64,000 nt of DNA from Candidatus Heimdallarchaeota archaeon (GCA_030603365.1 JAUVXV010000016.1:1-64000); one strand, 5' to 3'. Numbered from the stretch's first letter, positions 1 to 43,260 are shown. The notes: generated by a model from the letters alone, not told the origin. Made by a program: numbers and translations.

Positions 1-2020
1 CATAGTTAGCTCCGGCGTTTACTGGGTCTTAGCCTGGTTGAACCCAGGTTTCAATCACCAGCACCGGCCAGGATTCACTAACTGTACTAAGGCTTTCGCC
101 CTTGCAGTTAGCTATGTTTTTATTAAACAGTCGGGTGCCCCGAGTCACTGCGACCTGGTGAGGCATACACCTCTCCAGGCATCCCTTATACCCAAGGTAC
201 GGGACTAATTTGCCGAATTCCTTCACCCTAGCTCCCCTAACACGCCTTAGCCTTCTAAGCTAGCCACACCTGTGTCGGTTCTGGGTACGGACACGCGTAA
301 TCGTTCTCTTTGCCTTTTCATGGGCTGTTGGGATTGATGGCAGCCAGCAACCTATGGCCAGCCTCTTCATCTATTCTTCTGGTTCTCACCTTAACGGTTC
401 TCCCCAGAGTTCTAAAATTTAACTAGGATATTCTCCTAGGCCACCTACCCACCAACGTTAGCTCAGAGCTTGTGTCACCACGTCTATACGCATGGTACAG
501 GAATATGAACCTGTTTCCCTTTCGAATGATTCGTTTTAAGATCATCCTTAGGACCGACTAACCCTTGGCTGACGAACAGTGCCAAGGAACCCTTGGGCTT
601 GCGGCGGTGAGGATTCTCACCTCACTATGCTCCTACTACCACCGAGATCTGCAAATCTAATCGGTCCACTGGGAATCACTCCCCAGCTTCTACCCAACCA
701 GATCGCCCCCCTACCTGAGACTCTTTTGAAGTCCAAATGGGTATCGGGACCCGGTTTAGCCCCGTCCATTTTCTGGGCCCAAAAACTCGATGAGTAAGCT
801 GTTACGCTTTTTTTAACGGATAGCTGCCTCTAAGCTTACCGCCTCATTGTTTTCGTCGTTGGACGCCATTCTGTTTAACATTTAACCGGGATTTAGGGCC
901 CTTAACCCATTGCAGGGTTGTTTCCCTTTCGGCCATATCCCTTGCGGATACGCGCCCGTCTGTCGCCTTCTACGGCGCTTGCAAGTTCGGAGTTGGAAGG
1001 GAGGGTGAGGATTTCACTCCCCAGGACCTCCCGTCCGTAGCTCTACCTCACAAGCAACCTCCAGCGACGCTATCCTGTGGTGATACTTCGGGGGGAACCA
1101 GCTATCAGCAGTTTAGATTGGTCTTTTGCCACTATCCCCAACTCAGACGAATGAATTGCATATCAATACCGCTTCAGGCCTCCACGCTCCTTTCGAAGCG
1201 CTTCACCTTGGTCAGGGATAGATCAACTGCTTTCGGGTCTTACACCTGTGATTTCACGCCCTTATCGGACGTCGCGCCTTGCCGAAGCTGCGCGCTGATT
1301 GCTTTCGCTACGTCACCGTATAATACTTAGACTTACCACAGACATAAACTCCTCGGCCCGTGTTTCTAGACGGAACGGATGACTCTGGTCCTCTCAGCTC
1401 GTACTGCCACCTCACGATGGGTTCCTTCACCGAGACTCTACCCTTTCAAGCCATCCACGTCTGTTACCATGTAATTTCAGGAACTTTTCACTCTCGTATT
1501 TCGAATACTTTTCAACTTTCACTCACGTTACTAGTGCGCTATCGGTCTAGGGGAGTATTTAGGCTTGGGAGTTAGTCCTCCCATATTTGCGCGACATATC
1601 CAAGCCACGCTAGTCTTGATACTACTAAGCCGAACGTTTACGTTTACGGGGCTATTACCCTCTATGGCACCCCTTTCCAGGGGTCTTCAACTTCACGTTT
1701 ACGGTCTATAATGTAGTCAAAACACCACATCTACCTTAATCTTTCAAAAAAGGAATTCGGTTTGGCCTGTTCCGGTTTTACTCGCCGTTACTACCGGAAT
1801 CACTTTTGTTTTCTTTTCCTGCAGGTACTTGAATGTTTTGGTTCCCTGCGTTCCCCGCCATCACTGGCTGTTACAGTTTATTAAACTGTAACCGGAAATC
1901 CGATTCGGGAATCTATGGATCGTAGACTGTCTGCGTCTCCCCATAGCGTTTCGCCGCTTACCGCGCCCTTCATCGGCTCCCTAGCCGAGTCATCCACTAC
2001 ATGGCGTATGCATAGTGTAG
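1..2020 (-). rRNA. rrl: 23S rRNA, 5' ~2 kb (continues past the window edge)
   Basis: Reverse complement contains conserved LSU motifs, e.g. GTGGATGACTCGGCT..GCCGATGAAGG near the 5' end, AGTACCTGCAGGAAAAGAAA, ATAGCTGGTTCCCCCCGAA and GAAGGAATTCGGCAAAT. GC-rich against an AT-rich background. 5' end approximate. Confidence 0.97.
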
Positions 2021-2362
2021 GTTACTCTAGAAATCAGTTTTCGCCTTCTAGGAGAGTTCTTGTCAGCTAACTGAATTTTATTCAGTGGATAATCGTAATC
2101 CTGGAGGAGATAAACACGCAATGTATTGCGCGAGTAGGGTTTTTATTCCCTTCGTTTATAATTGTTCCGTTTTTGAACATTATCGTAATCAATAGATTAC
2201 ATTCCTACCTGTTAGGGTAAGATACAACAGATAAGCAAACATCAATAGATATTCGCATATCTACAAAATGAGCTTTAGATAAAAAGGTATTGTTTTAAGA
2301 TAGAATTTCCTAATATTTACGGAAGATTTTTAGTGCTTGAATTCTATCCTTAACTGAGCTAT

Positions 2363-2776
2363 ATGGTTGTCGACCAGTATCTGCCTAAACTCAAGAAACT
2401 TGCTATTGAATCCTGCAAACACGCTTATGCTCCTTACAGTAACTTCCATGTTGGTGTTGCACTATTAATGGAAAGTGGAAAAATTTTCACAGGATGTAAT
2501 GTTGAGTTTTCAGATTATCTTGCTCTTCATGCCGAAGTTAATGCTATAGGATCAGCTGTTGATAAAGGTGAGAAAGATATCCAAGCTGTAGTTGTTTACT
2601 CTACAAGCTCACCTCCAGTCTTACCTTGTGGTTCATGTAGACAAAAGTTGTTTGAGTTCTCATTAATGTTCAAACACGATATCAAGGTCATTGCTTTCAA
2701 CAATGAAGACGAGCAAATTGAAATGCTATTGAGTGAACTTTTACCAGGAGGAGAAATTAAAGTAGACAAAAAATAA
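2363..2776 (+). CDS. cdd: Cytidine deaminase
   Basis: AYAPYSNFHVG, GCNVE, HAE and PCGSCRQ zinc motifs. Confidence 0.95.
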   Translation: MVVDQYLPKLKKLAIESCKHAYAPYSNFHVGVALLMESGKIFTGCNVEFSDYLALHAEVNAIGSAVDKGEKDIQAVVVYSTSSPPVLPCGSCRQKLFEFSLMFKHDIKVIAFNNEDEQIEMLLSELLPGGEIKVDKK

Positions 2777-2782
2777 TTTTTC

Positions 2783-2929
2783 TTACTCAAGTAATTCATA
2801 AAACATACAAGAACCACATAACCAGAATTTCTTAATTTCAGTTAAATCATAATCATCAGGAAGATAGTTCTCTCTTTTGATCATCGACGACCCACATTTT
2901 GGACATTCTTTTATCTCTTCTTCACTCAT
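2783..2929 (-). CDS. 48-aa zinc-ribbon microprotein (CPxCG ... CxxC), not in ORF track
   Basis: Manual translation: MSEEEIKECPKCGSSMIKRENYLPDDYDLTEIKKFWLCGSCMFYELLE*; GTGA SD-like sequence upstream. Confidence 0.75.
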   Translation of the reverse strand: MSEEEIKECPKCGSSMIKRENYLPDDYDLTEIKKFWLCGSCMFYELLE

Positions 2930-3434
2930 GATATAGTCACGTTCTATTACACTTAAGCTAATTAATATTTTACGAAAGTCCTAATCGCATCAAGACGATT
3001 TTCTTGCCACCAAAGACTAATTCTAAGAGTAGTTATATGGATGAATATCTTTAGTCATTGAATAATACGAAACTTACTTGTTGGTGTGTTTTTACCATAT
3101 TATCATTCATTTCTGAAAGGGATATTGAATAGATTTGGAAAACATGTTGAAAAAGCAATTTGTTCTTATTTGGTGACTCTGGAGGTGATGTAAAAATCAT
3201 CACACTCTTCTGGATCTAACCATGTATCATCACTCTCGGTTGTAATTAATATTAAAGACCAAACTAATTAAACTACACAAGAAAAAAATGACATTTACAA
3301 ATAAAGTTCCAGTCGCAATTGGCCCGGGGTCTATTCACTTAACATCTGGTTTACAGACCCGGGGTCTGTATTATATTTGTATTATAATTGTAAGCTCAAA
3401 CGGCTTAAACCCCGAACTGAACCCGCTACACATA

Positions 3435-3470
3435 ATCTTACCACGTTAATTTTATTTCATGTGGTAAGAT
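3435..3470. repeat. Inverted repeat ATCTTACCAC-N16-GTGGTAAGAT (copy 1)
   Basis: Identical 10-bp arms and the same 16-nt spacer length recur at 43225-43260. Confidence 0.85.
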
Positions 3471-3530
3471 AAAGAATCGTTTGAATTCCCTCTTCCCTTA
3501 ATGTTTATAAGTTGATACTTCACCCAAAGC

Positions 3531-3968: not shown

Positions 3969-5543
3969 TTAAGTCACTATTTTCAATGTGTCTTTACCCT
4001 GTAAATTGAGATAATCTAGTAGTTTGTTCTCTAATCTACTAAAACCATGTTGTTGACATTTCTTAATTGCCATGTACTGGAGAGCTGGTCCTAAAGAATC
4101 ACCATTCTTGTAAGCACCTACCTGGATGAAAGCTTCCATGAAGACGCGTAACTCAAGAACTTCGATACGGTGAAGCTGGTTTTCATATTTCTTTAAGAGT
4201 GGGTATATCTCTGCAAAACGATGTATTCGGTAGTATTCCTGTGCTGCTAATAGATCCGCGAATGCTTTCTCTACAAAGGTCATTCGTTCTTCAACCGGTC
4301 TCTTCTTTAAGATAGAGATATAACCAATGATTTGCTTTTCTTCTGTATGAGTTGCTTTTTCTATGAGAAAATTGATGATGTGTTCAAATCTCTTTGTACT
4401 CGGGTTGTTTAGGTTTCTTATTTTTAGTAAATGCTCCTTAGTAAGGTTAGCGTTCAGAAGAAACTCACTAAAGAATATCGCATTGCTGTAATATTTGTCT
4501 ATACCACTTCGAATAATTTGCACTAATTCCTGCAAACCTTCAATTTGAAAACCTTGTAATCTTGATTTAATGTAAAATTTCGTTAGATTGAATGTGTGCT
4601 CAATTTGTCTTTTGCTAAAAGAATCTAGATTCTTAATTGCAATATTTTCTTCTATCAGACCATCTACTTCTTTCATTTGTTTGAGAGCTAGTTCTAGTTT
4701 TCCTTGAAGTGCATAAGTAGAAGCTAAGTGTGAGAGCGTTGTTATGTAATATCCTAAGTATATACTCTTTCTGTGAATAAGTCTCAGAAAGTTTTGAGAG
4801 CGTTGAAAATGATTTTCTGATTTACTAAGATTAAAACTCAATTCATGACTAAAGCCAATGAAGAAATGAATGATTGCTTGTACTTCTTCTGGTACATTGT
4901 CAAGAAAATTGTAATCACTTAGTATCCTTTTTGATATGCTTAATGTCTTCCCCCAATTCTGATCTTGCTGGTAAATTAGAATTAGAACCCCCAAAGCAAA
5001 CGTTAAGCTTCTGTAAAAACCTTTTTGCATGAAATATTCTGCACATTTTTCTAAAATTTCAGCTGCTGTTACATCGCGTTTTATTAACCATTTTTCAATA
5101 GCAAACGAATAGTTACAAACATAATAGTCATATTCTTCAATATTATCATTTAGAGATATAAATTTCATTGATTCATCAAGAGCTTCTTTGCTTCTTTGTT
5201 TATTTCCTTTATATTTCTCAATATACCATTCAACATTGTAAGCAAGCGCTAATCCACCATCATAATCAATCTTTCTAGATATTTCTTTCATTTTACTTAT
5301 TAAATCGACAATGATTGTGAAGTTTTCTTCTGAGTGTTGAATTTGTGTTATTTTGATTTCATAAAGCTTAACTAAGGATTTCTGATCATTAATTAGTTCA
5401 CATTTCTTAATTGCTTTATTAACTGTATACAAAATTCCCTCATTATTTCTGTTATTTGATGCTGCAACTCTAAATTGTTCAATGAATGTATTCATGTCTT
5501 CAAAGGAATTTATACTCTCTAGTTCTCTAACCTTATCTTCCAT
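3969..5543 (-). CDS. Cassette 1 alpha-helical/TPR-like protein (524 aa)
   Basis: Helical-repeat pattern (e.g. LASTYALQGKLELALKQMKE); paralog of 5988-7575 and 8060-9634 with a near-identical C-terminus (IYPLL.KYENQLHRIEVLELR.FMEAFIQVGA..NGD.LGPALQYMAIKKC). Confidence 0.85.
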   Translation of the reverse strand: MEDKVRELESINSFEDMNTFIEQFRVAASNNRNNEGILYTVNKAIKKCELINDQKSLVKLYEIKITQIQHSEENFTIIVDLISKMKEISRKIDYDGGLALAYNVEWYIEKYKGNKQRSKEALDESMKFISLNDNIEEYDYYVCNYSFAIEKWLIKRDVTAAEILEKCAEYFMQKGFYRSLTFALGVLILIYQQDQNWGKTLSISKRILSDYNFLDNVPEEVQAIIHFFIGFSHELSFNLSKSENHFQRSQNFLRLIHRKSIYLGYYITTLSHLASTYALQGKLELALKQMKEVDGLIEENIAIKNLDSFSKRQIEHTFNLTKFYIKSRLQGFQIEGLQELVQIIRSGIDKYYSNAIFFSEFLLNANLTKEHLLKIRNLNNPSTKRFEHIINFLIEKATHTEEKQIIGYISILKKRPVEERMTFVEKAFADLLAAQEYYRIHRFAEIYPLLKKYENQLHRIEVLELRVFMEAFIQVGAYKNGDSLGPALQYMAIKKCQQHGFSRLENKLLDYLNLQGKDTLKIVT

Positions 5544-5602
5544 AAAATGGTCACCAGCATATTTGATGACAACTAGATTTTATTTAAAAGTCGTCCAATA
5601 AA

Positions 5603-5618
5603 TTGCAGTTTAATTGCA
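5603..5618. promoter_or_regulatory. TTGCA-N6-TTGCA direct repeat upstream of the cassette 1 large gene
   Basis: Same motif at an equivalent position upstream of the cassette 3 large gene (9695-9710), just upstream of an AT-rich TATA-like stretch. Confidence 0.5.
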
Positions 5619-5660
5619 TTTATACTGAAATAAAAGATAAAAGGGGAGACTTAATTGCTT

Positions 5661-5729
5661 TTACGGTCTCCATGCTGGTGGAAGTATTCCTTCATCTCCC
5701 TCATCGGGATCATATTTTAGTTCATGCAT
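5661..5729 (-). CDS. Cassette 1 micro-peptide MHELKYDPDEGDEGILPPAWRP (22 aa)
   Basis: Manual translation; GAGTGA SD 6 nt before ATG; TTTTAATA box at 5776-5783; conserved across paralogs. Confidence 0.85.
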   Translation of the reverse strand: MHELKYDPDEGDEGILPPAWRP

Positions 5730-5736
5730 TGTAAAT

Positions 5737-5982
5737 CACTCTTAGGAAAGGGTTATCCTAATAGTAGCATGAAGCTATTAAAACACCTCAAGGAAGAATG
5801 TGTCATAAAAGAAAATTGGTCCGATGAATTTAATTCTGTAAAAGAGTATTTCAGATGATTTTTTGTGTGAAATTAAAAACCTCCAAAGAATACAGAAACC
5901 CCGAAACATCTTATCTACTGAAAAAGAAAGAGAATAAGGGTTGTGGGATCTATATAAGATCCCAAACGTAGAAGGTGATCCA
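5737..5982 (-). repeat. Copy of 16S 3' end + pre-rRNA trailer + peptide promoter (unit 1)
   Basis: Highly similar to 9834-10079; begins TGGATCACCTTCTACGTTTGGGATC on the minus strand. Confidence 0.9.
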
Positions 5983-5987
5983 TTTCA

Positions 5988-7575
5988 TTAAACACTAATT
6001 CTAAGTGCCTCACTTCCCTGTAAGAATAGATAATCTAGTAATTTGTTTTCTAATCTACTAAATCCGTATTCTTGACACTTTTTAATAGCCATGTACTGGA
6101 GAGCAGGTCCTAAAGGATCACCATTTTTATAGGCGCCAACTTGGATAAAAGCTTCCATGAAGATACGTAATTCGAGAACTTCGATACGGTGAAGCTGGTT
6201 TTCATATTTTCTTAAGAGGGGGTATATCCCTCCATAATTTTCATGTAAGAATAATTGTTGTGCAATCAATAAATCAGCGAAGGCATTCTCAATAAAGGTG
6301 GTTTTACAGGTTTTCTTTCTATTTTTCAAAATTCTTATTGTTTCCAGAAATTGTTGCTCAGTAGTGGCTTTCTCCCTTCTGTTAAGGAGTGTAAATGAAA
6401 TCAAGTGTTTAACACGGGCAATGCTAAAATTATCAATAATCAGAAGTTCTTCTAATTCTGCTGATTCTAGATTTGCGTTGAGAATAAACTCACTTAGGAG
6501 CATGAAATCACTATAAAGAGACTTACTTCTTATGAATATCTTAGAAATTAAATCTTGCATTTCCTCTGAATCAAATTCTTGCATACGAGAATAGACGTAA
6601 AACTTGTTTAAATTTAGAGTATGATGAATCTGTCTTTTTGTATTTGTATCTAGATTCTTCAAAAAAAATTCCTGTTGAAGTAATTTCTCAACATCTTCTA
6701 TTATTCTAATAGTTTGTTTAAGATTACCTTGCAATGCTTTAACTGTAACAATGTAAGAGTGGACAATAATAAAATTACTGAAATAGATACTGTCCTTATA
6801 GATGGGTTTGAGAATATTGTATGCTTCTTCGAAGAAGGATTCAGCAAAACTTAGATTCATGTTAAGCATAAATCCTAAACCTGTGAAGTATTGTAAAATT
6901 GCTTTGATGTCATTGGGTAATTCATCTAATATGCCCTTGCTACTAAATATTTTCCTACTAAGTTCCAGTATACTCTCGTGGGACTGCATTCTTGCATAAA
7001 TCACGCTCAATATACTTATAGACTGAGCCAAACTGCGATAAAAACCATTACTGTAAAAATACTCTATGTTATTCTTCAAAATGGATATAGATGAAAAGTC
7101 ATGATGCTCTAACCAAAGTTCAAGAGCATAAGAATAGTAACACATATTCGAGATGTATTGATCATATTCAATATTATTCTCTAGAATTGAAATTGCTTCT
7201 TGAATTGCCTTCGAGCTCTTTTCTTTATTTCCTGAAATTCTTTCAAGTAACCACTCATACATGTATGAAAAAGCCAATCCATTCATATTGTTTGATGTTT
7301 TTGAAAAGTATTTCATATCTTGTAGAAGTTTAAAACAGAGTTTTCGGTTTTCTTCAAGATGGTAGATTTGAGCGATTTTAAGTCCAATAAGTAATATTTG
7401 TGATTTCTTATCGTTTAGAATCAAACTTTTCTGAAGTCCAATATTGATAATCTCTTGAATAGTTTCATTTTTTTCATTTGATGATATTACTTTCAGATTC
7501 TTCTAAGAATTTTCTAAACTCTTCTTTAGTTTCAATGCTAATTATTATGTTTTTGACTTCTTCGTAATAGCTCAT
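5988..7575 (-). pseudogene. Cassette 2 TPR-like protein with a +1 frameshift near 7500 (about 528 aa if corrected)
   Basis: ATG at 7575 reads MSYYEEVKNIIISIETKEEFRKFLE; the next frame continues NLKVISSNEKNETIQEII..., matching paralog N-termini. The span is 1588 nt (3n+1). Could be a sequencing error. Confidence 0.75.
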
Positions 7576-7669
7576 CTTACAAATTAATCCGTACTTTCAT
7601 TTATATACTCGTGAAATACTTAAAATAAGAAATCTCGTTCAAAAAATAAAAAAGTATTGGGAGAAAGAA

Positions 7670-7741
7670 TTAAGCAGGACACCATAAAGGTGGTGTTATA
7701 CTCTCGTCTCCGTCTTCTGGGTCGTATTTTTCTTCGTACAT
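7670..7741 (-). CDS. Cassette 2 micro-peptide MYEEKYDPEDGDESITPPLWCPA (23 aa; two further in-frame ATGs up to 7747)
   Basis: Manual translation; GAGTGA SD; TTTTAATA box at 7788-7795; T-rich tract downstream. Confidence 0.85.
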   Translation of the reverse strand: MYEEKYDPEDGDESITPPLWCPA

Positions 7742-7748
7742 CATCATT

Positions 7749-8050
7749 CACTCTTAGGAAAGGGTTACCCTAATAGTAGAACAAAGCTATTAAAACACCT
7801 CAAGGAAGAAAGTGACAAGTAAGAAAACTGGCTAGAGGAATTTAAATCTGTAAAAGAATATTTCAACTGATTTTTTGTGTGAAATGAAAAACCTCCAAAG
7901 AATACAGGAACCCCGAGACTACTTCGTCCATAGAAGAATGAAGAGAATAAGGGGGCTTCTTTCGAAGTCAGATTGGTCATAACAAGGCCTAAAACAGGCC
8001 CTGCATGATCAGAGAATCCCCTGAGGGGATTCCAACGTAGGAGGTAATCC
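7749..8050 (-). repeat. Variant copy of 16S 3' end + trailer + peptide promoter (unit 2), with ~55 extra nt
   Basis: Begins GGATTACCTCCTACGTTGGAATCCCCTCAGGGG; extra hairpin-rich segment at about 7962-8015; remainder close to 9834-9990. Confidence 0.9.
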
Positions 8051-8059
8051 TTTCCTTGT

Positions 8060-9634
8060 TCAACCACTTACTTTGAGTATACTACTTTCCTGTAGGAATA
8101 GATAATATAGTAATTTATTTTCTAATCTACTAAATCCATATTCTCTACATTTCTTTATAGCCATGTACTGGAGCGCGGGTCCTAAAGGATCACCGTTGTT
8201 AAAAGCACCTACTTGGATGAAAGCTTCCATGAAGATACGCAATTCAAGAACTTCAATACGATGAAGTTGATTTTCATATTTTCTTAAGAGTGGGTAAATC
8301 TCTGCAAAACGGTTCAATTTATAATATTCTTGAGCTGCTAATAAATCTGCAAAGGCTTTCTCTACAAAAGTCATTCGTTCTTCAACAGTCCTATTTTTTA
8401 AAGCTTGAATTAGTTCCACAACTTGTATTTCCTCTGAATGTGTTATTTTTTCAATAAGAAAAGTAATGATGTGTTGAACTCTTTTAGTACTTGGATTGTT
8501 CAAATTTTTTATTCTTTCTAATTGATCTTCTGAGAAATTAGTGTTTAAAATGAATTCACTAAAGAAGATGGGATCGCTGTGTTGTTTCTTGATATTTTCT
8601 AGAATTACTTGAATCAACTCACTTAAATCTTCAGTTTGAAAGTTTTGCAATCTAGAATGGATGTAAAATTTGATTAAATTAAAATCATGTTCTATCTGTT
8701 TCTTGCTAAAAGAGTCTAAATTCCTTGTAGTAACACTTTCTTCAATTAGCTCTTCTACCTCTTTCATCTGGTTTAAAGCTAATTCTAATTCTCCTTGAAG
8801 AGCATAACAAGCTGTCAAATGGGCTTGACATCTTAGAAAGTATCCCAAGTAAACACTTTTTTTGTACTTACCTCTCAGATTATTCTGTGATTTGAGGAAG
8901 TAGTGTTTTGCTTCATTGATGTTAAGATTTAATCTATGATTCACTCCAATAAAATAATCTATTATTGCTTGGATTTCCAATGGCATTTTATGTAAAACAT
9001 TCTTATTTTGGATGATCCGTCTTACCAATTGTATTGATTTTTCTTTATTTTGTGTTTGTTGATAAATTAAAACTAAAAGTGATAAACTTTGAACAAAGCT
9101 TCTGTAAAAATTGTTCTTATAGAAGTAATTAGCACATTCTTCCAAAATAGAGGGGGCTATTGGTTCACGTTTTGATAACCAAATTTCTACTGCAAACGAA
9201 TATTTACATACATTATATTCATAGTTTTCTGAGTTTAAGTATTGAGTTACATAATTTATGGAATTATTGATAGCTTCTATGCTTTTCTTATCATTCCCTT
9301 TATGTTTTTCAATGTACCATTCTTTGTAATATGCTAGCGCTAATCCTCCCATATAGTTAATTTCCTTTGAAATATCTTTCATTTGTTGAATTATTTGAAC
9401 GATATTTTGATGTTCTTCCTTTTGGTGCTCAATTTGCGACATCTTCATTTCATATAACTTAACCAATGATTTTCGATCATTAAGCTGGTTACATTTTCTT
9501 ATTGTTTTATTTATTGTTTCTAAAATACCTTCTTCATTTCGGTGATTAGAAGAAATAACTCTAAATCTATCTATGAACAATGACATAGATTCTTCTGAAT
9601 CAATAGTTTCAAATTCATTAACCTTATCTTCCAT
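8060..9634 (-). CDS. Cassette 3 alpha-helical/TPR-like protein (524 aa from MEDKV)
   Basis: Closest paralog of 3969-5543; GGTGAT SD precedes the ATG at 9634 (the ORF track starts at 9652). Confidence 0.85.
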   Translation of the reverse strand: MEDKVNEFETIDSEESMSLFIDRFRVISSNHRNEEGILETINKTIRKCNQLNDRKSLVKLYEMKMSQIEHQKEEHQNIVQIIQQMKDISKEINYMGGLALAYYKEWYIEKHKGNDKKSIEAINNSINYVTQYLNSENYEYNVCKYSFAVEIWLSKREPIAPSILEECANYFYKNNFYRSFVQSLSLLVLIYQQTQNKEKSIQLVRRIIQNKNVLHKMPLEIQAIIDYFIGVNHRLNLNINEAKHYFLKSQNNLRGKYKKSVYLGYFLRCQAHLTACYALQGELELALNQMKEVEELIEESVTTRNLDSFSKKQIEHDFNLIKFYIHSRLQNFQTEDLSELIQVILENIKKQHSDPIFFSEFILNTNFSEDQLERIKNLNNPSTKRVQHIITFLIEKITHSEEIQVVELIQALKNRTVEERMTFVEKAFADLLAAQEYYKLNRFAEIYPLLRKYENQLHRIEVLELRIFMEAFIQVGAFNNGDPLGPALQYMAIKKCREYGFSRLENKLLYYLFLQESSILKVSG

Positions 9635-9757
9635 AAATAGGATCACCAGCAAAATGGATATGATATATATTTTATATTAAAACTATGTTCAATATTGCAG
9701 TTAGGTTGCATTTTTACTACATTTTATAAATTAAAAAAAGGAGAAACTATGATATTT

Positions 9758-9826
9758 TTACGGTGTCCATAATGGCGGCAAAATATCTCCGTCTCCTTCG
9801 TCAGGGTCGAATCTTTCTTTGTACAT
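9758..9826 (-). CDS. Cassette 3 micro-peptide MYKERFDPDEGDGDILPPLWTP (22 aa)
   Basis: Manual translation; GAGTGA SD; CTTTAATA box at 9873-9880. Confidence 0.85.
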   Translation of the reverse strand: MYKERFDPDEGDGDILPPLWTP

Positions 9827-9975
9827 CATTATTCACTCTTTGGAAAGGGTTATCATAATAGTAAAAAGAAGCTATTAAAGCACCTCAAGAAAGAAAGTGC
9901 CAAAGAAGAAAATTGTCTAGAGGAATTTAAATCTGTAAAAGAATATTTCAACTGATTTTTGTGTGAAATGAAAAA

Positions 9976-10031
9976 CCTCCAAAGAATACAGGAACCCCGA
10001 GACATCTTATCTACAGAAGAAAAAAGAGAAT
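9976..10031 (-). other. 3' arm of the 16S pre-rRNA processing stem
   Basis: Imperfectly complementary to 11691-11747 upstream of the 16S gene. Confidence 0.8.
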
Positions 10032-10066
10032 AAGGGTTGTGGGATCCCTGAGGGGATCCCAAACGT

Positions 10067-11577
<1,511 letters not shown>

Positions 11578-11690
11578 CCTTGTCTGATTATGGTACGATC
11601 TTTTATAGCTTAATTTAATAAATTGAACAGATTTGTTGCGCACATACACGTACTAGTGTTTTTTGTACTACACAAAACTTTTGTTCCTAA

Positions 11691-11747
11691 ATTCTCATAT
11701 TCTTCTGTAGCATCAGAACGTCTCGGAGTTCTTGTTTTCCTTGGAGG
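11691..11747 (-). other. 5' arm of the 16S pre-rRNA processing stem
   Basis: Imperfect inverted repeat of 9976-10031. Confidence 0.8.
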
Positions 11748-12057
11748 TGATTGTAAAATTCATACAGCACTTTGTTATGTTTTGCAAGGCTTTTTTAAGT
11801 TATCGTTCAAAGGCTTATTGTAGACAGCCAACCATAACGAAGTAGTAAGCTTGCAAATATGATTATTGCGTTTTCTCTTTTATTAATTGCGATTTAAGAG
11901 TTTTTTGCCTAAACAAAAAAAACTGCAATAAAACTGAAACAATCTGTGAAATCAAAGGAGCGGATTCTGTTAGACGAACCCGCTCAAAGACATGGCTTAA
12001 CATCCACTCATCAGACCGAAGTCTGACTTTTCGTGGCAATATACTAAGTTAGAGTTT

Positions 12058-12072
12058 ACTATAAATACTTTG
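12058..12072 (-). promoter_or_regulatory. Probable BRE/TATA promoter of the 16S transcript (AAAGTATTTATA)
   Basis: Archaeal TATA-like box ~25 nt upstream of a GC-rich structured leader beginning near 12037. Confidence 0.6.
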
Positions 12073-12373
12073 CTCTTTTGTCCATCTAAGTTTCCATTAA
12101 TCTAGACTTTTATGTCGGTAAGAGTGGCCATATCCTGATAAATTAATATTGAAAGTATTTGACAATTTTTTTCCTTTGAGATAATAGATGAAAATGAAAT
12201 AGCTATATTGAGAAATAGAGGGTGGTGATAAGGAAAGGATAGTATAACTTCTTTAAAAACGAGGGAATCCCTCTATTTCCTTCTTTTATTCACTAGTTAA
12301 TAAAATAAAATATTACTTGCCATTTGGCAGAAAATTTCCTTTACTTTCTTTTACTTTCATTTCGCTTAAAGTA

Positions 12374-12487
12374 TAACCTTTCCACGAGAGTTGAAATGAT
12401 ATGTATGACCCAGAACCAGGCGATGAAGATACTTTACCCCCACATTGGTTTCCTTAAAATTCAGAAACCAATTCATTTATTTTTTTG
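12374..12487 (+). repeat. 114-bp perfect inverted repeat, left arm
   Basis: Exact reverse complement of 14304-14417 by manual comparison. Confidence 0.95.
12401..12457 (+). CDS. Micro-peptide MYDPEPGDEDTLPPHWFP (18 aa), copy in the left IR
   Basis: Manual translation; same family motif as the cassette 1-3 peptides. Confidence 0.7.
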   Translation: MYDPEPGDEDTLPPHWFP

Positions 12488-12489
12488 TC

Positions 12490-14172
12490 TTATACCTCAT
12501 TTTCCAGATACTCTAATACTAACTTCTTTGATTGATTGTTATATATATCCAGAAAAGCAGTTTGTTTAAATCGCTCTGAAAAACTCTCTAAAGTTTTTGT
12601 TGATGTTATTAATTTTCTGTATAGTTTCACTTCTTCAGCCATTTTTCGAAAATTGTTTTTTGTACACCATCCCTCTAGTGAACTAAATTTACTTACTAGA
12701 TTTTGATCTTCTGGTTTTTCTAAATAACTTTGAAGAAGAACGAATAAATCAACCCACGGTTTTAAAACAGGGATCTCTGATTCAATTTTTATCTTTTTTA
12801 TCTTATCTACTATATTCTGAAATTCATCATATTTACCAATTGAAAGATAGATTTTTCCCAAAATGACATCAGCATATAATGGATTGTGTGTGAAATCTCG
12901 TATTATTTTGATGTTATCTATGGTTTTTTCTGTTGCAGAATATGTTTCTACAGAAGAGAGATGTTGATATAGACTGACATAGAGCTCAAGAGGATTTCTT
13001 GATTCAGTTCTTAATATGTCCCGCATTTGTTTTTCATCTAAAGATGTATCTAAAAGAAGGTTTTTTGATATATTAGATTTTTCTAGAAGAGATTTAACAT
13101 ATTGATGAATTTTCTGTAGTTTATTGTCTTGTATTCCTGAAATATTTAAATCAAGTTGAACAAAGATAAAGAGTAAGGTGTAGTAAGAATTAAACTGCAA
13201 CCGCTTGTAACCATACTCAAAATAATTCCGCTTAACATAATCCTCTTCCATAAATGATAATAATTCCATGATAAGATCGTATGATTGCTGAAAATTACCA
13301 ACATATGCATAACAACGACTTAGAAGACGTATAATCTCTGTATATTCATACATCATTGTTAATTTTGTTTTTCTTGAATTTGAGATTTTTTTGTGAGCTT
13401 CAGTCAATAGTTCTATCGCTTCTCTAGTTCTCATTCTGATCGTGTAAATTTGACCTGTAAATAAATATAATAAAATATAATGTGTATCTATAAGATTATT
13501 TTGAATTTGTTCTTCGTCAAAAACCCAATCTAAGATTCCCTTGATTTTTTCATCATCACCTAAGAAACTATAGATACGTAGGAGTTGAAAAATAGCAAAA
13601 ATCATTGCTTGAGAATTATAATTACTATACCAATACTGTATGCAATCTTCAGTATTTGAAATTGCATCAGGAAAATTATGGTTTTTTGTCCAACTAAATA
13701 GTGTGTAAACATACAAAATTCGATGATAGGTATCATCATATTGATTTTTATATGGAGTAATTAATTCAACTGCTTTACTCGCGAAATTAATTGCATCATC
13801 CATTCTCGAATGGAATTGATTTGTTAAGGATTTGGAGATGTTAATGAAAGCTTCTTGTTCTATTTTGTTATTTTTTTCATTTATTTTCTCCATTTGTATG
13901 ATGACTTCTTCTGCTTTTTTGGAGTACTCTGTATAGAAATATATTTGTTGAAAATAAAGGAGATATAGTCTAAATAACTTTTGACTATCGTTAACATTTT
14001 TTGTAGTTTCAATTAACATCTCTAATAATTTTACTAATTCTGATGATCTTTCATTTGCACATACGTATTCTAAATCAGTGAGAATTTCCTGAAGTTCTGA
14101 TATACTAGTAACTGGTTTTTGAATATCAAGAAGTTTCTTCTTCTTTCTTTGATACTCTACAATATCTAACAT
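12490..14172 (-). CDS. Cassette 4 alpha-helical/TPR-like protein (560 aa), distant homolog of cassette 1-3 proteins
   Basis: Collinear similarity: NDSQKLFRLY..QQI vs NDQKSLVKLY..TQI; LSRCYAYVGNFQQS vs LASTYALQGKLELA; NFRKM vs GFSRL. Confidence 0.75.
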   Translation of the reverse strand: MLDIVEYQRKKKKLLDIQKPVTSISELQEILTDLEYVCANERSSELVKLLEMLIETTKNVNDSQKLFRLYLLYFQQIYFYTEYSKKAEEVIIQMEKINEKNNKIEQEAFINISKSLTNQFHSRMDDAINFASKAVELITPYKNQYDDTYHRILYVYTLFSWTKNHNFPDAISNTEDCIQYWYSNYNSQAMIFAIFQLLRIYSFLGDDEKIKGILDWVFDEEQIQNNLIDTHYILLYLFTGQIYTIRMRTREAIELLTEAHKKISNSRKTKLTMMYEYTEIIRLLSRCYAYVGNFQQSYDLIMELLSFMEEDYVKRNYFEYGYKRLQFNSYYTLLFIFVQLDLNISGIQDNKLQKIHQYVKSLLEKSNISKNLLLDTSLDEKQMRDILRTESRNPLELYVSLYQHLSSVETYSATEKTIDNIKIIRDFTHNPLYADVILGKIYLSIGKYDEFQNIVDKIKKIKIESEIPVLKPWVDLFVLLQSYLEKPEDQNLVSKFSSLEGWCTKNNFRKMAEEVKLYRKLITSTKTLESFSERFKQTAFLDIYNNQSKKLVLEYLENEV

Positions 14173-14303
14173 GATTTACCCCTTTGTGCCTTTCCTCAAG
14201 CTAAACTGAATAACAATTTTACATTAATAAATATGTGAAATGACTATAAAATGTCTTTGTCTGGCTAGTATACTAAAATATAATCATATTGCAAAATAAA
14301 TTT

Positions 14304-14417
14304 CAAAAAAATAAATGAATTGGTTTCTGAATTTTAAGGAAACCAATGTGGGGGTAAAGTATCTTCATCGCCTGGTTCTGGGTCATACATATCATTTCAA
14401 CTCTCGTGGAAAGGTTA
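14304..14417 (-). repeat. 114-bp perfect inverted repeat, right arm
   Basis: Exact reverse complement of 12374-12487. Confidence 0.95.
14334..14390 (-). CDS. Cassette 4 micro-peptide MYDPEPGDEDTLPPHWFP (18 aa)
   Basis: Upstream of and co-oriented with the 560-aa gene, as in cassettes 1-3. Confidence 0.85.
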   Translation of the reverse strand: MYDPEPGDEDTLPPHWFP

Positions 14418-14586: not shown

Positions 14587-17433
14587 ATGGTAAAAAAGAA
14601 GAATCCTTCAAATAAATATAAATACAATTCAAAAAAGAGTAAGGAAAGTAAGAAAATTCGTATTTTCAAAAGGATTCTGCCATGGTTAATAGTTATTCTT
14701 GTGGGGTTAATTTCCTTCATTTTTCTGTTTCCTGAATTAATTAAACTCCTTCCATTTGAACCCTTAGTAGTAATAGCTGAATTCAGTGAGAACGTTTCCC
14801 TAGCTCTGAAAGGTTTCTTTGTAACAGTCTTTACAAACGTAGCTGCTTTATCATCTATTGTAGGTCTAGTTATTCTGTTAATTATAATCAAATTCTTGCC
14901 TTTCTATCCTGTAGATGATGTAAATTCTCAAACTCAGAAGAAACTGTTTTTGCCTTTTTACAGAAAAGTGGGTATTGTAATTGTATCCTCTTCAGTAACA
15001 AATTCCTCTAACAACTTCGATTCTGTGAATTCATATGCTAACAGGGTACACCAAGCTTTCATCAGCTGTCTATCAATGAGGAAGAGAGATAGGATGTTAG
15101 CTGTCTATAAGCATAATACAGGGGTTAGTTTATTCTTTCCAGTAGCAGTAAAAGGATGGCTCAAGAAAAAGGTAGAAGAAAAATTAGAAAGAGACATTGT
15201 ATTTGTTTCCAGTTCCATTGAAACACATTATGATTGTAGAATCAAGACTCTAACTGGAGAACAAGCACGAAGTATGGTCAAAACACTGAACCAAATGAAA
15301 GCAAAGAGCAAAATTGATTTTTCAAGAGAGCTGGTTACTAGTTTTAACCTAACGGATCAGATGTATAACATTCTCTTGAGAAATGAAATAAAAGATGCTT
15401 GTTTTATTATTAGGACAGAAAAAAAGAGAAAAGAATCAAAACAGGTTATTTTTGATTTACTACTTTTAGCTGAAGACAAGAAAACCGAATCTTTTATTCT
15501 AAACGCCAGTGGCTTAGCTAAGAAAAAAAGAAAAATTATCCCTTCTAATAAATCTTTCAATAAGTTAATGTTCTCTCCTGTTAGGAATAAACAGTCAGTA
15601 GAAATAGAAAACATTGCTACTCTAGTTCATGTTCCTCACACATATAGAGGAGGATTCTTACCAGTGAGAACAAAAGAAATAAGCTCAGAGTTAGCTAATT
15701 TTGTTCAAGATAAAGAAACCATTATTGTTGGTAGAGTTGTTGATGAGAATGATATGGGACGAGAGATTACTCTAAATGTTAAAGACTTACTACTCAATGC
15801 AGAGATTTTTGGTCAAATTGGGCGTGGAAAGACAAAGATTGTTTCCTCTATTGTTGGACAACTATTAGATAAAAAAATCAGTACTTTGGTATTCGATATC
15901 AAAGGAGAGTATGCTAGAACCTTTTTTGATAATCCAAAAGTAGAGGTTTTTACAATAGGGAGACCTCATCCTTTGTGTATTAATATATTTGAAACTGTGG
16001 ATGAAGATGATATTCATAACACACTCCTGATAATCGAGGAGATGTTATTGTCTTCAAATCAGGAATTTACACCTGCAATGAAGAATCTATTTGAGAGTGC
16101 TCTAATTTTAACACACAAATCACCTAAAAGAAACCTCCAAGTTTTTGTTGAAAATATCTTCAAAGTGTCAAAACAGCTACAAGTTCATTCAAACATTACC
16201 TACCTACAACAAACAATTGATGCGGTCTTAAACCGATTGAACTTCATTTTTAATCCTATTAACTTTGAGATTTTAGGGTCTACAAGGACAACCTTAGATT
16301 TCTCGCTTCTAGAGGGAGGCAAAAGCATAATTTTGGATATGAGTCAATTTCAGAGAAGGGCAGCAAGACCTTCTGATATCTTCTTAGTCTGTAATCTTAT
16401 TCTGAAAATGCTTTACAGATATGCTTCCTCAAAGGAAATGACAAATAAATTGAGATATGTTGTTGTTCTTGAAGAAGCAATAAATATAATTCCCAATTTC
16501 TATCACTCTGAAAGCTCTGCTTCGTTGATTACTGCAGAAAATAACTTTTTACTAGGAAGAAGTCTTGGAATTGGTCATATAACAATTTCACAGATGTGGC
16601 AAAGTGTTAGTAATATTGTCCACGGTAATTCTGCAACTAAATTCATCTTCCGTTCAAGTGAAAAAACCGATTTAATAGCTAAGTCTTTGAATCTGGATGA
16701 AAATGAAACAGCAAAAATTCAGAGTCTTCCTACTCAACATTGCTTTCTGTTTTCAGAGAATTCAGAATCAGCAATTCGAATAAGAACTCTTGACTTAATT
16801 AATGATCCAATTAGTTATGCAGAATACCAGGCAAAAATGCTCAAGAAATATGGTAGAAGTGTCTTTCCATTATTGTATAACAATTTCATAGATATGAGAA
16901 CTTCAATCTATCAACAGAGTAATCAAAATAGAACTGCAAAGACATCCAAGAGTGTAGTAACTAAAACCCCTGTCTATCCTCAAGAAAATCTTGATCAATT
17001 TCTTGAAAAAGAAGAGTCAGAAGTCAAAGCGATTCAAAAATCTAAAATCATTATTGAGCAAGATACATTAGATCTTATAACTTCGGCAGGAATGCTTCCT
17101 GAAAATCTAATCTGTGAACGTTTATGCCCAGAAAAAAGTAGTAATAAAGCCTGTTTGAAATACAATATGGCTGCTAAGATTATTAAATCAACAATAATAA
17201 ATGAGTGTTCTACCAAGGAGATATCAATCTTATTGAATGATGAAACAGAATTACAATCTTTAGTTTCTGCAGTAGCTATTAAGAGAAATCTAGAATATGA
17301 TGATTTTCTTGTTTTTTGTACTGTTAAGGTTCTGGTTCTTGATTATGCTTCAGATAGCATTCTCACACCCAACGAAGCCTATACCATTCTTACCAGATTT
17401 TCACCTAGATTACGAAATACTATTAATTCTTGA
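14587..17433 (+). CDS. Membrane-anchored HerA/FtsK-like (DUF87-type) ATPase
   Basis: Two N-terminal TM segments; Walker A GQIGRGKT; VFDIKGEY; Walker B VVVLEEA; GRSLGIG motif. Confidence 0.8.
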   Translation: MVKKKNPSNKYKYNSKKSKESKKIRIFKRILPWLIVILVGLISFIFLFPELIKLLPFEPLVVIAEFSENVSLALKGFFVTVFTNVAALSSIVGLVILLIIIKFLPFYPVDDVNSQTQKKLFLPFYRKVGIVIVSSSVTNSSNNFDSVNSYANRVHQAFISCLSMRKRDRMLAVYKHNTGVSLFFPVAVKGWLKKKVEEKLERDIVFVSSSIETHYDCRIKTLTGEQARSMVKTLNQMKAKSKIDFSRELVTSFNLTDQMYNILLRNEIKDACFIIRTEKKRKESKQVIFDLLLLAEDKKTESFILNASGLAKKKRKIIPSNKSFNKLMFSPVRNKQSVEIENIATLVHVPHTYRGGFLPVRTKEISSELANFVQDKETIIVGRVVDENDMGREITLNVKDLLLNAEIFGQIGRGKTKIVSSIVGQLLDKKISTLVFDIKGEYARTFFDNPKVEVFTIGRPHPLCINIFETVDEDDIHNTLLIIEEMLLSSNQEFTPAMKNLFESALILTHKSPKRNLQVFVENIFKVSKQLQVHSNITYLQQTIDAVLNRLNFIFNPINFEILGSTRTTLDFSLLEGGKSIILDMSQFQRRAARPSDIFLVCNLILKMLYRYASSKEMTNKLRYVVVLEEAINIIPNFYHSESSASLITAENNFLLGRSLGIGHITISQMWQSVSNIVHGNSATKFIFRSSEKTDLIAKSLNLDENETAKIQSLPTQHCFLFSENSESAIRIRTLDLINDPISYAEYQAKMLKKYGRSVFPLLYNNFIDMRTSIYQQSNQNRTAKTSKSVVTKTPVYPQENLDQFLEKEESEVKAIQKSKIIIEQDTLDLITSAGMLPENLICERLCPEKSSNKACLKYNMAAKIIKSTIINECSTKEISILLNDETELQSLVSAVAIKRNLEYDDFLVFCTVKVLVLDYASDSILTPNEAYTILTRFSPRLRNTINS

Positions 17434-41396: not shown

Positions 41397-42620
41397 CTAT
41401 TTCTCAGCATACTCAACTGTTTTCTTCTGGTTCTCAATTGCTTTTACTAAAAACAGTTCAATGTTTTCCACAGATATATCTGGTATGCTAATTAGTGTTG
41501 TTTTACCTCTCATACCCTCACCTGAGATTTTTGTGCTAATGATATCCTGTTTGGAAAGCTCTTTTAGATAAGACCAAACCTGAGTATGTTTTCTCGGTTC
41601 TTCCTTATACTCTTCACACACCAATCTATAGGCACCTATAGAATCATTTGTGGAGATATAGGCATTTTTTGTATGCTTTAGTTTTCTGATTATAGCAAGA
41701 AGAATTAACTTCTGATGAAGAGTTAAAGTTAGAATAATTTCTCTTCGAATTTCAGGGTGAATTAAGGCTTTTGCTTTTCTTACATGATCGGGATAAACAA
41801 TAGGAGAACTCTCATCATCGGCACATTGTCCAGCCCCCCAAAGAAGTTCTATCGCATATCTAGCATCACCAGACCTACTTGAAATGTCTGCAATTAATTC
41901 AGTTGTATCTTCTGTTATTGTGCCATCATAGAATGCTAGTTCTGCACGTGATTTTATAATGTCCTTCAAATCATCTTCTGCATATCTATCTAACGATATG
42001 TGGTTTGATTGAAAACTACTTTGAGTACTTGCGTCCATTTGATAAATGAAATTAAGATTTCTTGCTACAAAAATATAAGACATCCACTGTTTTGAAGTCA
42101 TCTCACTGATTCTAAGCAAGGTGTAAAGAAAGTCAGTTCCAACTCTTGAAATTAAGTAATCCACTTCATCCAAAATCAGTAATACTTTTGGAGAATAAAA
42201 ATCAAGTAATCTGATTAGAAGTGATTGTAATTCTTCAAATGAATAACCTCGTGGTGGTATAGCTTTGTTCAATTTACGGGCAAGAGTGCTAACAATCAAA
42301 TATGGGCTCTTGTAAATGCGGCAGTTAATATATACTAAAAGAAAATTATTGGTTTTATCGATATTTTCTAAAAGTTGACCAAATCGTTTTGCTAAAGTTG
42401 TTTTACCAGATCCAGTAGGACCAGTTATACAGACTTTTTTCAAAGGTCCATCTTGGCTGTCAAAAATTGTTTTGAAACATTTAGCCAGAGTTCTAAGCTC
42501 TTCCTCCCTATGTGGAAGATAAGGTGGAATATACGTCACAGAAAGACAACCAATGTCTTTAAACACAGTTGGCTTCTTAATTAGTGAGTTGAAATACTCT
42601 TCATCTGAAGTATGCATCAT
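41397..42620 (-). CDS. cdc6: Orc1/Cdc6 replication initiator
   Basis: YIPPYLPHRE, GPTGSGKT, YINC, LDEVD, GDARYAI, C-terminal wHTH. Confidence 0.95.
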   Translation of the reverse strand: MMHTSDEEYFNSLIKKPTVFKDIGCLSVTYIPPYLPHREEELRTLAKCFKTIFDSQDGPLKKVCITGPTGSGKTTLAKRFGQLLENIDKTNNFLLVYINCRIYKSPYLIVSTLARKLNKAIPPRGYSFEELQSLLIRLLDFYSPKVLLILDEVDYLISRVGTDFLYTLLRISEMTSKQWMSYIFVARNLNFIYQMDASTQSSFQSNHISLDRYAEDDLKDIIKSRAELAFYDGTITEDTTELIADISSRSGDARYAIELLWGAGQCADDESSPIVYPDHVRKAKALIHPEIRREIILTLTLHQKLILLAIIRKLKHTKNAYISTNDSIGAYRLVCEEYKEEPRKHTQVWSYLKELSKQDIISTKISGEGMRGKTTLISIPDISVENIELFLVKAIENQKKTVEYAEK

Positions 42621-42888
42621 ATCCTCTCTAACTTACTCAAGGGAATTTACTATTTATACTTAATAGAGAGGCTTGTCTGAAAGTGATTTTCATCCAAAAA
42701 AGAGTCTTTCCACTATGACGGTTTTTGCTGGGTCTAAAATGCAGTTTAGATAACAACACCTAAACTAAAAGTATCTGTAAGTGTTGAATGTGAAAGACAG
42801 ATCATCTTCTAACCTGTCAGTTTTTCTTTAGAGTGTTTTAATAGTTTTATTCAATTAATATGGTAGACCTATCCGAGAGTGAGTTATG

Positions 42889-42960
42889 ATGTACAAACCA
42901 AAATATGATCCTGACGAGGGAGATGGAGATATTCTCCACCCAGCTTGATTCCCAAACTAA
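42889..42960 (+). pseudogene. Cassette 5 micro-peptide MYKPKYDPDEGDGDILHPA*FPN (conserved Trp codon mutated to TGA)
   Basis: Same TTTTAATA box (42836-42843) and GAGTGA SD; premature TGA at 42946-42948. Confidence 0.85.
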
Positions 42961-43012
42961 AAAAATCTCCAAATTTTCATTTTTTTTGACAAAAAATTTC
43001 ACGAGTATATAA

Positions 43013-43171
43013 ATGAAAGTAGGTGCTTTCAAGAATGGTGATCCTCTTGGACCTGCTCTCCAGTACATGGCTATCAAAAAGTGTAAACAGTATGAATTTA
43101 GTGGATTAGAAAAGAAGTTAGCAAATTATCTAATGATGCAAGGCACTGATATAATTAAAACAATGCCTTAA
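43013..43171 (+). pseudogene. C-terminal ~50-aa remnant of the cassette TPR-like gene
   Basis: Reads (MK)VGAFKNGDPLGPALQYMAIKKCKQYEFSGLEKKLANYLMMQGTDIIKTMP*, fused directly to the promoter. Confidence 0.9.
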
Positions 43172-43224: not shown

Positions 43225-43260
43225 ATCTTACCACAGAGAAATATAATTGCGTGGTAAGAT
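43225..43260. repeat. Inverted repeat ATCTTACCAC-N16-GTGGTAAGAT (copy 2)
   Basis: Same arms as 3435-3470; followed by a T-run. Confidence 0.85.

Follow-up and report, generated by a model that had tools for sequence, protein, structure and literature searches.

The 64-kb stretch analysed here (hereafter the window; JAUVXV010000016.1:1-64000 of the Candidatus Heimdallarchaeota archaeon assembly GCA_030603365.1, our G000:C8:1-64000) comes from an 89% complete Heimdallarchaeaceae genome and carries tiny open reading frames (ORFs) that encode an acidic peptide with the core DPxxGDxxxxPPxWxP and lie beside genes for a large, lineage-specific protein of 525-560 residues, which is predicted to resemble the solenoids of tetratricopeptide repeat (TPR) proteins. 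This work found that these micro-ORFs are real, strongly conserved coding genes, and that their adjacency to the large gene is held in 56 of the 57 genes of types A and B, two of the three subfamilies described below, through saturation of synonymous sites and changes of orientation. Based on these findings, we propose that the peptide acts in trans and binds the TPR protein encoded beside it, a reading that we consider evenly poised between right and wrong, and within which a regulated ligand and a constitutive subunit filling the groove of its partner are about equally likely.

Conservation, signals and linkage of the micropeptide genes

A degenerate DNA pattern for DPxxGDxxxxPPxWxP gave 123 matches in 24 genomes, all of the genera g1 and g2, whereas 369 other genomes of the Asgard phylum gave no match, and a reversed-pattern control none either, a result far beyond what chance would yield. 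Within this genome, a six-frame search of the whole assembly found six copies only, the sixth on contig C14 upstream of a fifth large paralog, and in relatives a peptide ORF stands upstream of the large gene in 30 loci, often as two or three tandem copies. The peptides are acidic, rich in proline and glycine and 18-25 residues long, and none of 51 collected ones has a hydrophobic stretch; the ATG lies 1-7 codons ahead of the core in 50 of these 51 ORFs, and the stop falls 0-1 codon past WxP in all of them. Across this set, which was chosen by a protein regular expression that inflates the apparent invariance but not the placement of starts and stops, the fixed D/P/G/D/P/P residues use two to four synonymous codons apiece, the entropy of the three codon positions is 0.44, 0.49 and 1.38, and the ratio of nonsynonymous to synonymous change (pN/pS) is 0.27, indicating at the level of the sequence that the micropeptide is under purifying selection. 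The first-pass annotation of this DNA had argued for such selection from synonymous codon use and had named a ratio near 1 as the result that would speak against it, which did not occur; its remarks that the peptides lack a signal sequence and that the motif persists beside the divergent partner of cassette 4 also hold, as the invariant part is the same there although that partner is only 18% identical to large gene 1. More generally, the peptide is better conserved than the large protein downstream, and its variable positions are 8, 9, 11, 14 and 16. The tryptophan is near-invariant, with tyrosine instead in two intact copies, which both lie at L059 11150-11900 (minus strand, endings PPLYFPN and PPMYFPN), upstream of a cassette convergent to the 23S rRNA. 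By itself the peptide should be unable to fold and is expected to be extended. More than 120 copies of a micro-gene missed by gene callers thus occur across one Heimdallarchaeaceae lineage, tied to a fast-diversifying TPR protein, and a functional class of small genes is overlooked when Asgard genomes are annotated by standard means.

The regulatory elements were placed by anchoring 50 peptide copies on the ATG. A TATA-like box lies at about -50, preceded by TG(T/A)CA at about -73 in 46 of the 50 copies (about 22 nt upstream of the box), and is followed by TAAC at about -22, which is likely the start of the peptide transcript, and by GTGA at -10 to -7, part of a Shine-Dalgarno (SD)-like AGTGA complementary to the 3′ end of 16S rRNA; an oligo-T or T-rich tract resembling a terminator follows the stop. 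Promoter and terminator signals of this kind are found in 46-50 of the 50 copies, so that the SD-like element and T-rich tail noticed in the first reading are both recovered, and the TTTAATA box it saw shared among copies reads as a TATA box. The large genes have a TATA box of their own (e.g. TTTAAATA) about 45 nt before the ATG, as well as a GGTGA SD, and from these signals the peptide gene and the large gene look like separate transcription units. Additionally, just upstream of the large-gene TATA box, about 10 loci carry direct repeats of (A)ACTGCAAT in two or three copies with 11-nt spacing (window 5590-5625 and 9690-9720; L001 3370-3410; also L012, L022, L023, L025, L026 and L031), a candidate operator for a transcription factor; the TG(T/A)CA element (e.g. 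at 5800, 7815 and 9900 of the window) is a second candidate regulator site.

A small ORF ahead of a larger gene could also be a cis-acting leader, in which the PPxWxP-stop would stall the ribosome and set read-through of the T-tract into the large gene. PP.W.P does fall right before the stop in most copies, the median gap from the peptide stop to the large-gene start is 114 nt, with type A copies on the same strand and a T-tract after them, and the peptide is more conserved than the protein downstream, like arrest peptides that bind the ribosomal tunnel. However, judged by sequence, each peptide gene carries a promoter and a terminator-like tract of its own and the large gene a separate TATA box and SD, as many as three entire units stand in tandem, about one third of the copies have a single extra residue past the final proline, and other copies are convergent to the large gene (the window, L039, L040 and L060) or have no partner at all. 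With one to three units per gene, separate promoters and terminators, convergent copies and intact orphans, the product would act in trans rather than in cis, and we therefore set the leader or arrest peptide aside as unlikely, and indeed as very improbable.

The linkage was counted over the non-redundant large genes in the fetched loci, taking for type A the 700 nt upstream on the same strand. The large proteins form three subfamilies: type A (genes 1-3 and 5 of this genome), type B (gene 4), 18-21% identical to type A, and type C, 22-25% identical to both. At least one upstream peptide ORF accompanies 51 of the 52 type A genes; by a stricter regular expression, 32 genes have one copy, 13 have two and five have three, and the L059 gene has its two Trp-to-Tyr variants, found with a looser pattern. 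All five type B genes have an adjacent peptide gene (three upstream and three convergent at the 3′ end, gene 4 of the window having both), and none of the nine type C genes has one. Over the 27 genomes with the large protein, the linkage whose strictness the first-pass annotation proposed to test across Asgard genomes is near-strict in types A and B, and the outcome that it had held against itself, a majority of large homologues lacking the peptide, did not arise, the exception being the remote type C; its statement, made for the window, that every large gene is preceded by a tiny ORF on the same strand is nearly exact for type A in the relatives too, but does not extend to type B genes with a convergent copy only or to type C. 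The large protein occurs in 27 of the 47 genomes of the order, all of one family (23 of 24 in g1, two of two in g2 and one of one in g3), and tandem arrays bring the number of copies in a genome to as many as 11; in genus g3 all matches are type-C-like and no peptide occurs, and the peptide and its paired protein are confined to g1 and g2. Type C genes (L042-L050, L027 and L028) are single-copy, encode 547-587 residues and have a beta-CASP/metallo-beta-lactamase gene on one side and a UDP-glucose dehydrogenase gene on the other; this subfamily is possibly ancestral, and no member of it was found in the 89%-complete genome studied here.

In the window, cassettes 1-4, each a micropeptide gene and a large gene, read on the minus strand throughout, in the order cassette 4, 16S rRNA, three tandem units of a micro-ORF and a gene of about 525 codons, and then the 5′ two-thirds of the 23S rRNA (2021-1), with each micro-ORF 74-318 nt upstream of its large ORF. 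Micropeptide gene 1 (5661-5729; 22 codons and a stop, core YDPDEGDxxILPPxWxP) has a TATA-like box about 50 nt upstream, an AGTGA SD and a T-rich tail, and precedes large gene 1 (P0001; 3969-5543), which encodes a type A TPR-like superhelix of 524 residues behind the TTTAAATA TATA box and GGTGA SD. Micropeptide gene 2 (7670-7747; 25 codons from the first ATG) precedes large gene 2 (5988-7574; type A, 44% identical to gene 1), whose N-terminal ~50 codons are out of frame owing to a frameshift or stops at an A-run near 7470-7480, and which is either a pseudogene or the victim of a homopolymer error in the assembly. Micropeptide gene 3 (9758-9829; 23 codons) precedes large gene 3 (8060-9634, with the ATG at 9634; type A, 61% identical to gene 1). 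Micropeptide gene 4 (14334-14390; 18 codons, a DPEPGD variant) precedes large gene 4 (12490-14172; type B, 560 residues, 18% identical to gene 1), which has orthologues in L041, L034, L040 and L060. The 23S rRNA runs on from the window into contig C14, where the fifth large paralog (1750-3354; peptide core at 3433-3480) is convergent to the 23S 3′ end.

The micro-ORFs quoted in the first-pass annotation are all present at the positions it gave, those of cassettes 1-4 on the minus strand, while its count of five cassettes comes down to four, one of them frameshifted, and one deleted remnant. The remnant (42813-43171, plus strand) keeps the peptide promoter; in the peptide pseudogene (42886-42948) the Trp codon TGG has become TGA and one proline has become histidine, and an internal deletion has reduced the large gene to a 52-residue ORF (43013-43171) holding the conserved C-terminal helices alone, with tRNA-Leu following at 43366. 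The second copy of micropeptide gene 4 at 12401-12457, earlier described as a duplicate, is indeed identical, but it is on the plus strand and runs toward the 3′ end of gene 4, within one arm of a perfect 114-bp inverted repeat (left arm 12374-12487, right arm 14304-14417). The arm takes in a complete peptide unit, beginning shortly downstream of the predicted promoter and ending with the terminator. The two arms bracket gene 4, and recombination between them could flip the 1.8-kb segment; a diverged form of this layout is found at G015:C330 (L039), and L040 and L060 carry the convergent copy only. An ORF of 407 codons at 41397-42620 was considered as the partner of the decayed peptide and rejected, as it encodes Orc1/Cdc6 on the opposite strand (the family is likewise present in L037).

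The TPR-like partner and the proposed pairing

In the AlphaFold2 model, made with 83 sequences (predicted local distance difference test 89, predicted template modelling score 0.86), 27 helices form 13 hairpins in a continuous TPR-like superhelix over residues 14-523, and by this model the large protein is a TPR-like solenoid of tandem antiparallel helix pairs wound into a right-handed superhelix. Structural matches (Foldseek, VIA-align) were TPR proteins exclusively: APC5 was the top whole-length match (Z 22, 466 residues aligned, root-mean-square deviation (rmsd) 8.9), accompanied by phage and Bacillus Rap with pheromone (Z 17-19.6, at best 318 aligned with rmsd 5.2), MalT domain III (Z 19.3), RapF-PhrF (Z 19.2), LGN (Z 18.3), APPBP2 with a degron (Z 18.2), NprR-NprX (Z 18.1), APC6-Cdc26 (Z 16.6, 276-277 aligned, rmsd 4.9-5.0), AimR (Z 15), PlcR (Z 14) and TPR-peptide complexes of KLC1, although for helical repeats a Z near 14 is background and all these values are suggestive only. 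At the sequence level, Pfam and NCBIfam gave no family above threshold, generic TPR models being sub-threshold (Pfam TPR_MalT, E 0.012, below its cut-off), and no catalytic, helix-turn-helix (HTH)/DNA-binding or other domain. A profile of 83 members searched against all PDB sequences matched only designed or IFIT TPRs at E > 0.002, with no RRNPP or other natural relative, a search of the ESM Atlas added nothing beyond sub-threshold generic TPR, and a profile search of 1.84 billion representatives gave 117 clusters, among which no fused or domain-extended relative was found. The first description of the protein as TPR-like, with no obvious HTH or catalytic motif, is thereby upheld, and its structural analogues include the peptide-binding Rap, NprR, APC subunits, LGN and APPBP2.

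The lack of a catalytic family bears on the possibility that the peptide is a precursor like those of ribosomally synthesised and post-translationally modified peptides (RiPPs) or of peptide-derived cofactors, in which the YDPxxGD leader would be recognised by the TPR protein and the PPxWxP core modified, for instance at the tryptophan, and possibly exported. Several tandem precursor-like genes with strong promoter and terminator signals ahead of a larger gene recall the layout of pqqA and many RiPP precursors, the N-terminal part is conserved and the C-terminal part more variable around a near-invariant aromatic residue, and a MacB-type ATP-binding cassette (ABC) exporter (ATPase and FtsX permease) is a recurrent syntenic neighbour. 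However, the partner consists of a TPR solenoid and nothing else, without a match to any catalytic Pfam or NCBIfam family, no radical S-adenosylmethionine, YcaO, LanC/M or prenyltransferase gene occurs among the conserved neighbours (pyrophosphatase, phosphoenolpyruvate carboxykinase, rRNA, HerA-like and ribosomal protein genes), tyrosine replaces the tryptophan in the two intact copies noted above, and the ABC genes of this genome have no cassette beside them. We regard such a precursor as rather improbable.

The large protein also diverges unevenly along its length. In type A, the last ~90 residues are near-invariant and the remainder diverges (61% identity between genes 1 and 3), the N-terminal four-fifths doing so fast; type A alone has the conserved polar face formed by Q313/H316/N319/R328/N364/R385/H388. 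Such divergence would suit a conflict or recognition module, akin to toxin-antitoxin, defence or self/non-self systems, in which one partner neutralises the other and the paralogs record an arms race, and so would the lineage-restricted expansion to as many as 11 copies per genome in tandem arrays, the hypervariability of peptide position 16, the frequent pseudogenes and remnants and the copy flanked by an inverted repeat that could invert. Against it, the large protein lacks any toxin-like or nuclease/NTPase domain, and the cassettes occupy conserved chromosomal places (the rRNA operon and the tRNA-Leu/Orc1 locus) rather than recognisable mobile elements or defence islands, for which PADLOC and PHROGs were not searched; a conflict module thus seems about as improbable as a modified precursor. 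The first-pass annotation had left an inhibitor or antitoxin and a RiPP-like pair equally open with a cognate receptor, and both are now less likely than plain binding, with no catalytic domain in the partner or the conserved neighbours.

Comparison of peptides with their partners points to where specificity could reside. Among cassettes whose large proteins share 65-80% identity, 82% of pairs have the same residue at peptide position 14 and 73% at position 11, while the fixed codons differ at their third position in 42%; between large proteins 35-45% identical, the corresponding values are 17% and 24%. Synonymous sites are saturated between orthologous cassettes, yet positions 11 and 14 are unchanged there and differ between paralog groups, and these two positions appear to define the type of a cassette and to be kept by selection within orthologues. 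Position 16, beside the tryptophan, is hypervariable even between close orthologues and is no clean specificity residue; the earlier proposal of specificity in the variable residues around PPxWxP may apply to positions 11 and 14, which behave as specificity residues would.

Therefore, because the peptide genes have their own promoters and terminators, occur in tandem units of unfixed orientation, are near-strictly adjacent to the large gene over the same taxonomic range and decayed together with it in the remnant, we favour a diffusible product acting on the neighbouring protein, with the following proposed steps. First, the micropeptide gene, as its own transcription unit, would yield a free acidic peptide. 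This peptide would then lie in the groove of the adjoining TPR protein in an extended form, as TPR-groove ligands usually do, and alter the action of that protein; its role would be that of a regulated ligand or of a small subunit that the protein cannot do without, much as Cdc26 fills the APC6 groove. The invariant YDPxxGD...PP.W part may make the contacts common to all pairs, core positions 11 and 14 may bias each peptide toward its own paralog, and the near-invariant C-terminal ~90 residues of type A are a candidate surface for a common output or partner. Of the cognate peptide-receptor pair first suggested, the TPR fold, the near-strict linkage and the purifying selection stand, while kinship with RRNPP systems does not and the binding is what we infer from them.

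Several observations weigh against this proposal. The TPR matches reflect, on the structural comparison, a common repeat architecture and not a common function, and the Rap alignment slides along the solenoid, covering residues 13-384 or 174-523. A comparison of near-invariant residues among types A, B and C gave no signature common to A and B yet missing in C. Linked genes share ancestry, and the pattern at positions 11 and 14 is partly expected without any selection for pairing. About eight of the 123 peptide genes are orphan or terminal, without an adjoining large gene, so the peptide may also act elsewhere; a few of these are intact. A complex prediction for the L009 pair, with the chains as alignments and the peptide extended by nine in-frame upstream codons to a size of 30 residues, scored 0.25 and 0.19 against a mark of 0.32, which counts neither for nor against binding.

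The intact orphans would also fit a peptide that works independently of the TPR protein, by binding a metal or calcium or as the ligand of another protein, the adjacency then being due only to co-duplication and shared regulation; one common target would likewise account for an invariant part that stays the same beside partners 18% identical, and the DPDEGDGD stretch resembles acidic loops of the DxDxDG type. However, the adjacency persists in 56 of the 57 type A and B genes despite synonymous saturation and changed orientation, and peptide and partner were both broken in the remnant of the window, which makes independence quite improbable.

A more specific form of the binding proposal is an archaeal peptide signal-receptor system, intracellular or from cell to cell, with pherotype-like paralogs and evolved independently of the bacterial RRNPP systems, to which we give a small but appreciable chance. 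In such a system, the invariant C-terminal module of the TPR protein would convey to a conserved cellular target whether a peptide is bound, and since the 16S-23S spacer houses cassettes throughout the genus, this target may have a link to ribosome production. The archaeal signals known so far are small molecules, and to our knowledge no gene-encoded peptide ligand with a receptor of its own has been established in archaea.

Genomic setting of the cassettes

The cassettes lie at conserved chromosomal places across the genus, namely the 16S-23S spacer together with the 3′ side of the 23S rRNA, and the Orc1/Cdc6-tRNA-Leu locus. In L059 (G025) the order is the 16S end, two cassettes, the 23S rRNA and a convergent cassette, with which L017 and L057 agree, and at the Orc1/Cdc6-tRNA-Leu locus eight relatives have intact cassettes where the present genome has the remnant. 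The 16S rRNA of the window is complete on the minus strand; its Rfam match (11577-10098) ends at 10098 while the true GGATCACCTCCT end, with the anti-SD, lies near 10059, because a hairpin-forming insertion of ~31 nt occurs at 10059-10110 (minus) between ...GGGGAACCTGCGGA and TGGATCACCTCCT. At the head of each spacer unit (5740-5985, 7760-8050 and 9830-10058, minus) stands a duplicate of the final 12 nt of 16S and of the 3′ strand of the leader-trailer processing helix. Each of the three trailer copies is able to pair with the 16S 5′ leader (11578-11800), with duplexfold energies of -72 to -87 kcal/mol where shuffled sequences give -41 to -57; these copies show how the units multiplied, not what the pair does. 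That the peptide is a mere conserved piece of the rRNA trailer was considered and rejected, as the homology to the non-rRNA loci (C14 and tRNA-Leu) begins at the peptide promoter and the conservation is at the protein level.

Other neighbours recur as well. A HerA-like (DUF87) ATPase gene of 948 codons (14587-17433, plus strand), followed by the genes for ribosomal proteins L1 and L10, flanks cassette 4, and the same trio flanks type A cassettes in G028:C9 (L057), forming a conserved border of the cassette region. Genes for a MacB-type ABC transporter lie near cassettes at L053 9388-12067, L054 3689-6365, L055 17257-19933 and L038 3-2670; in L038 and L053 a peptide gene is directly beside the transporter, and in this genome (G000:C14:8824-11439) the transporter has no adjoining cassette. 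The same 10-nt stem with a 16-nt loop (CTTACCAC.. / ..GTGGTAAG type) is found at 43225-43260, downstream of the remnant, and at 3435-3470, downstream of the spacer array; the stem at 43.2 kb, with a T-run after it, may be a terminator hairpin.

Comparison with known systems

One of the closest parallels is the RRNPP group of Bacillota and their phages (Rap-Phr, NprR-NprX, PlcR-PapR and AimR-AimP), in which a tiny peptide gene likewise adjoins a gene for a TPR superhelix, many diverged paralogous pairs occur per genome, and the receptors Rap, NprR, AimR and PlcR are among the best structural matches of our protein (Z 14-19.6), at the level of architecture only, as the alignments slide. However, the host here is an archaeon, most peptide genes precede the large gene, with promoter and terminator signals of their own and often as two or three copies, and the peptide is acidic and apparently used whole (18-25 residues), the 51 collected peptides showing neither the signal nor the hydrophobic segment of a secreted pro-peptide. 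The protein is longer (13 hairpins) and has no HTH or recognisable Rap-type effector domain by Pfam or NCBIfam, the structure alone leaving room for a Rap-like N-terminal bundle, and the 83-member profile is without an RRNPP match in the PDB. Therefore, lacking an effector or HTH domain, a secreted pro-peptide and any sequence relation, and belonging to another domain of life with another gene layout, the module is, judged by its sequence, not a member of RRNPP; the comparison drawn in the first-pass annotation stands as regards a TPR superhelix with an adjacent peptide gene.

In the eukaryotic anaphase-promoting complex (APC/C), Cdc26 bound to APC6/Cdc16 and other small accessories of TPR subunits offer a second parallel, since a short unstructured peptide is known there, and proposed here, to lie inside a long TPR superhelix and stabilise it, APC5 being the top whole-length match and APC6-Cdc26 listed too. 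The two are without sequence relation, the Z range may reflect shared architecture alone, no other APC/C-like genes lie nearby, and the pairs described here are multi-copy and fast-evolving. Kinesin light chain, whose TPR domain recognises Y-acidic motifs (PMC6214655), and the C-degron receptor APPBP2 resemble the proposed pair in that an acidic peptide with a key tyrosine or tryptophan would occupy the TPR groove; their W-acidic, Y-acidic and degron motifs are parts of large proteins, whereas ours are stand-alone genes in which the tryptophan is flanked by prolines and not by acidic residues. Arrest peptides ending in Pro-stop, such as TnaC and upstream ORF 2 of cytomegalovirus UL4, share a length of ~20-25 residues, a conserved tryptophan, a C-terminal proline at the stop and a place upstream of a larger gene, but not the separate promoter and terminator signals or the tandem, convergent and orphan copies. 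RiPP clusters differ in that an adjacent catalytic peptide-modifying domain was found in neither the partner nor the conserved neighbours of the cassette.

Full-text literature searches found no description of this peptide/TPR family, and no known system matches the cassette, which works most like a peptide/TPR-receptor pair. If the peptide does bind its partner, the closest archaeal relatives of eukaryotes would offer, in this cassette, a compact and testable model of how TPR proteins recognise short motifs, a mode typical of eukaryotic complexes such as kinesin light chain and the APC/C.

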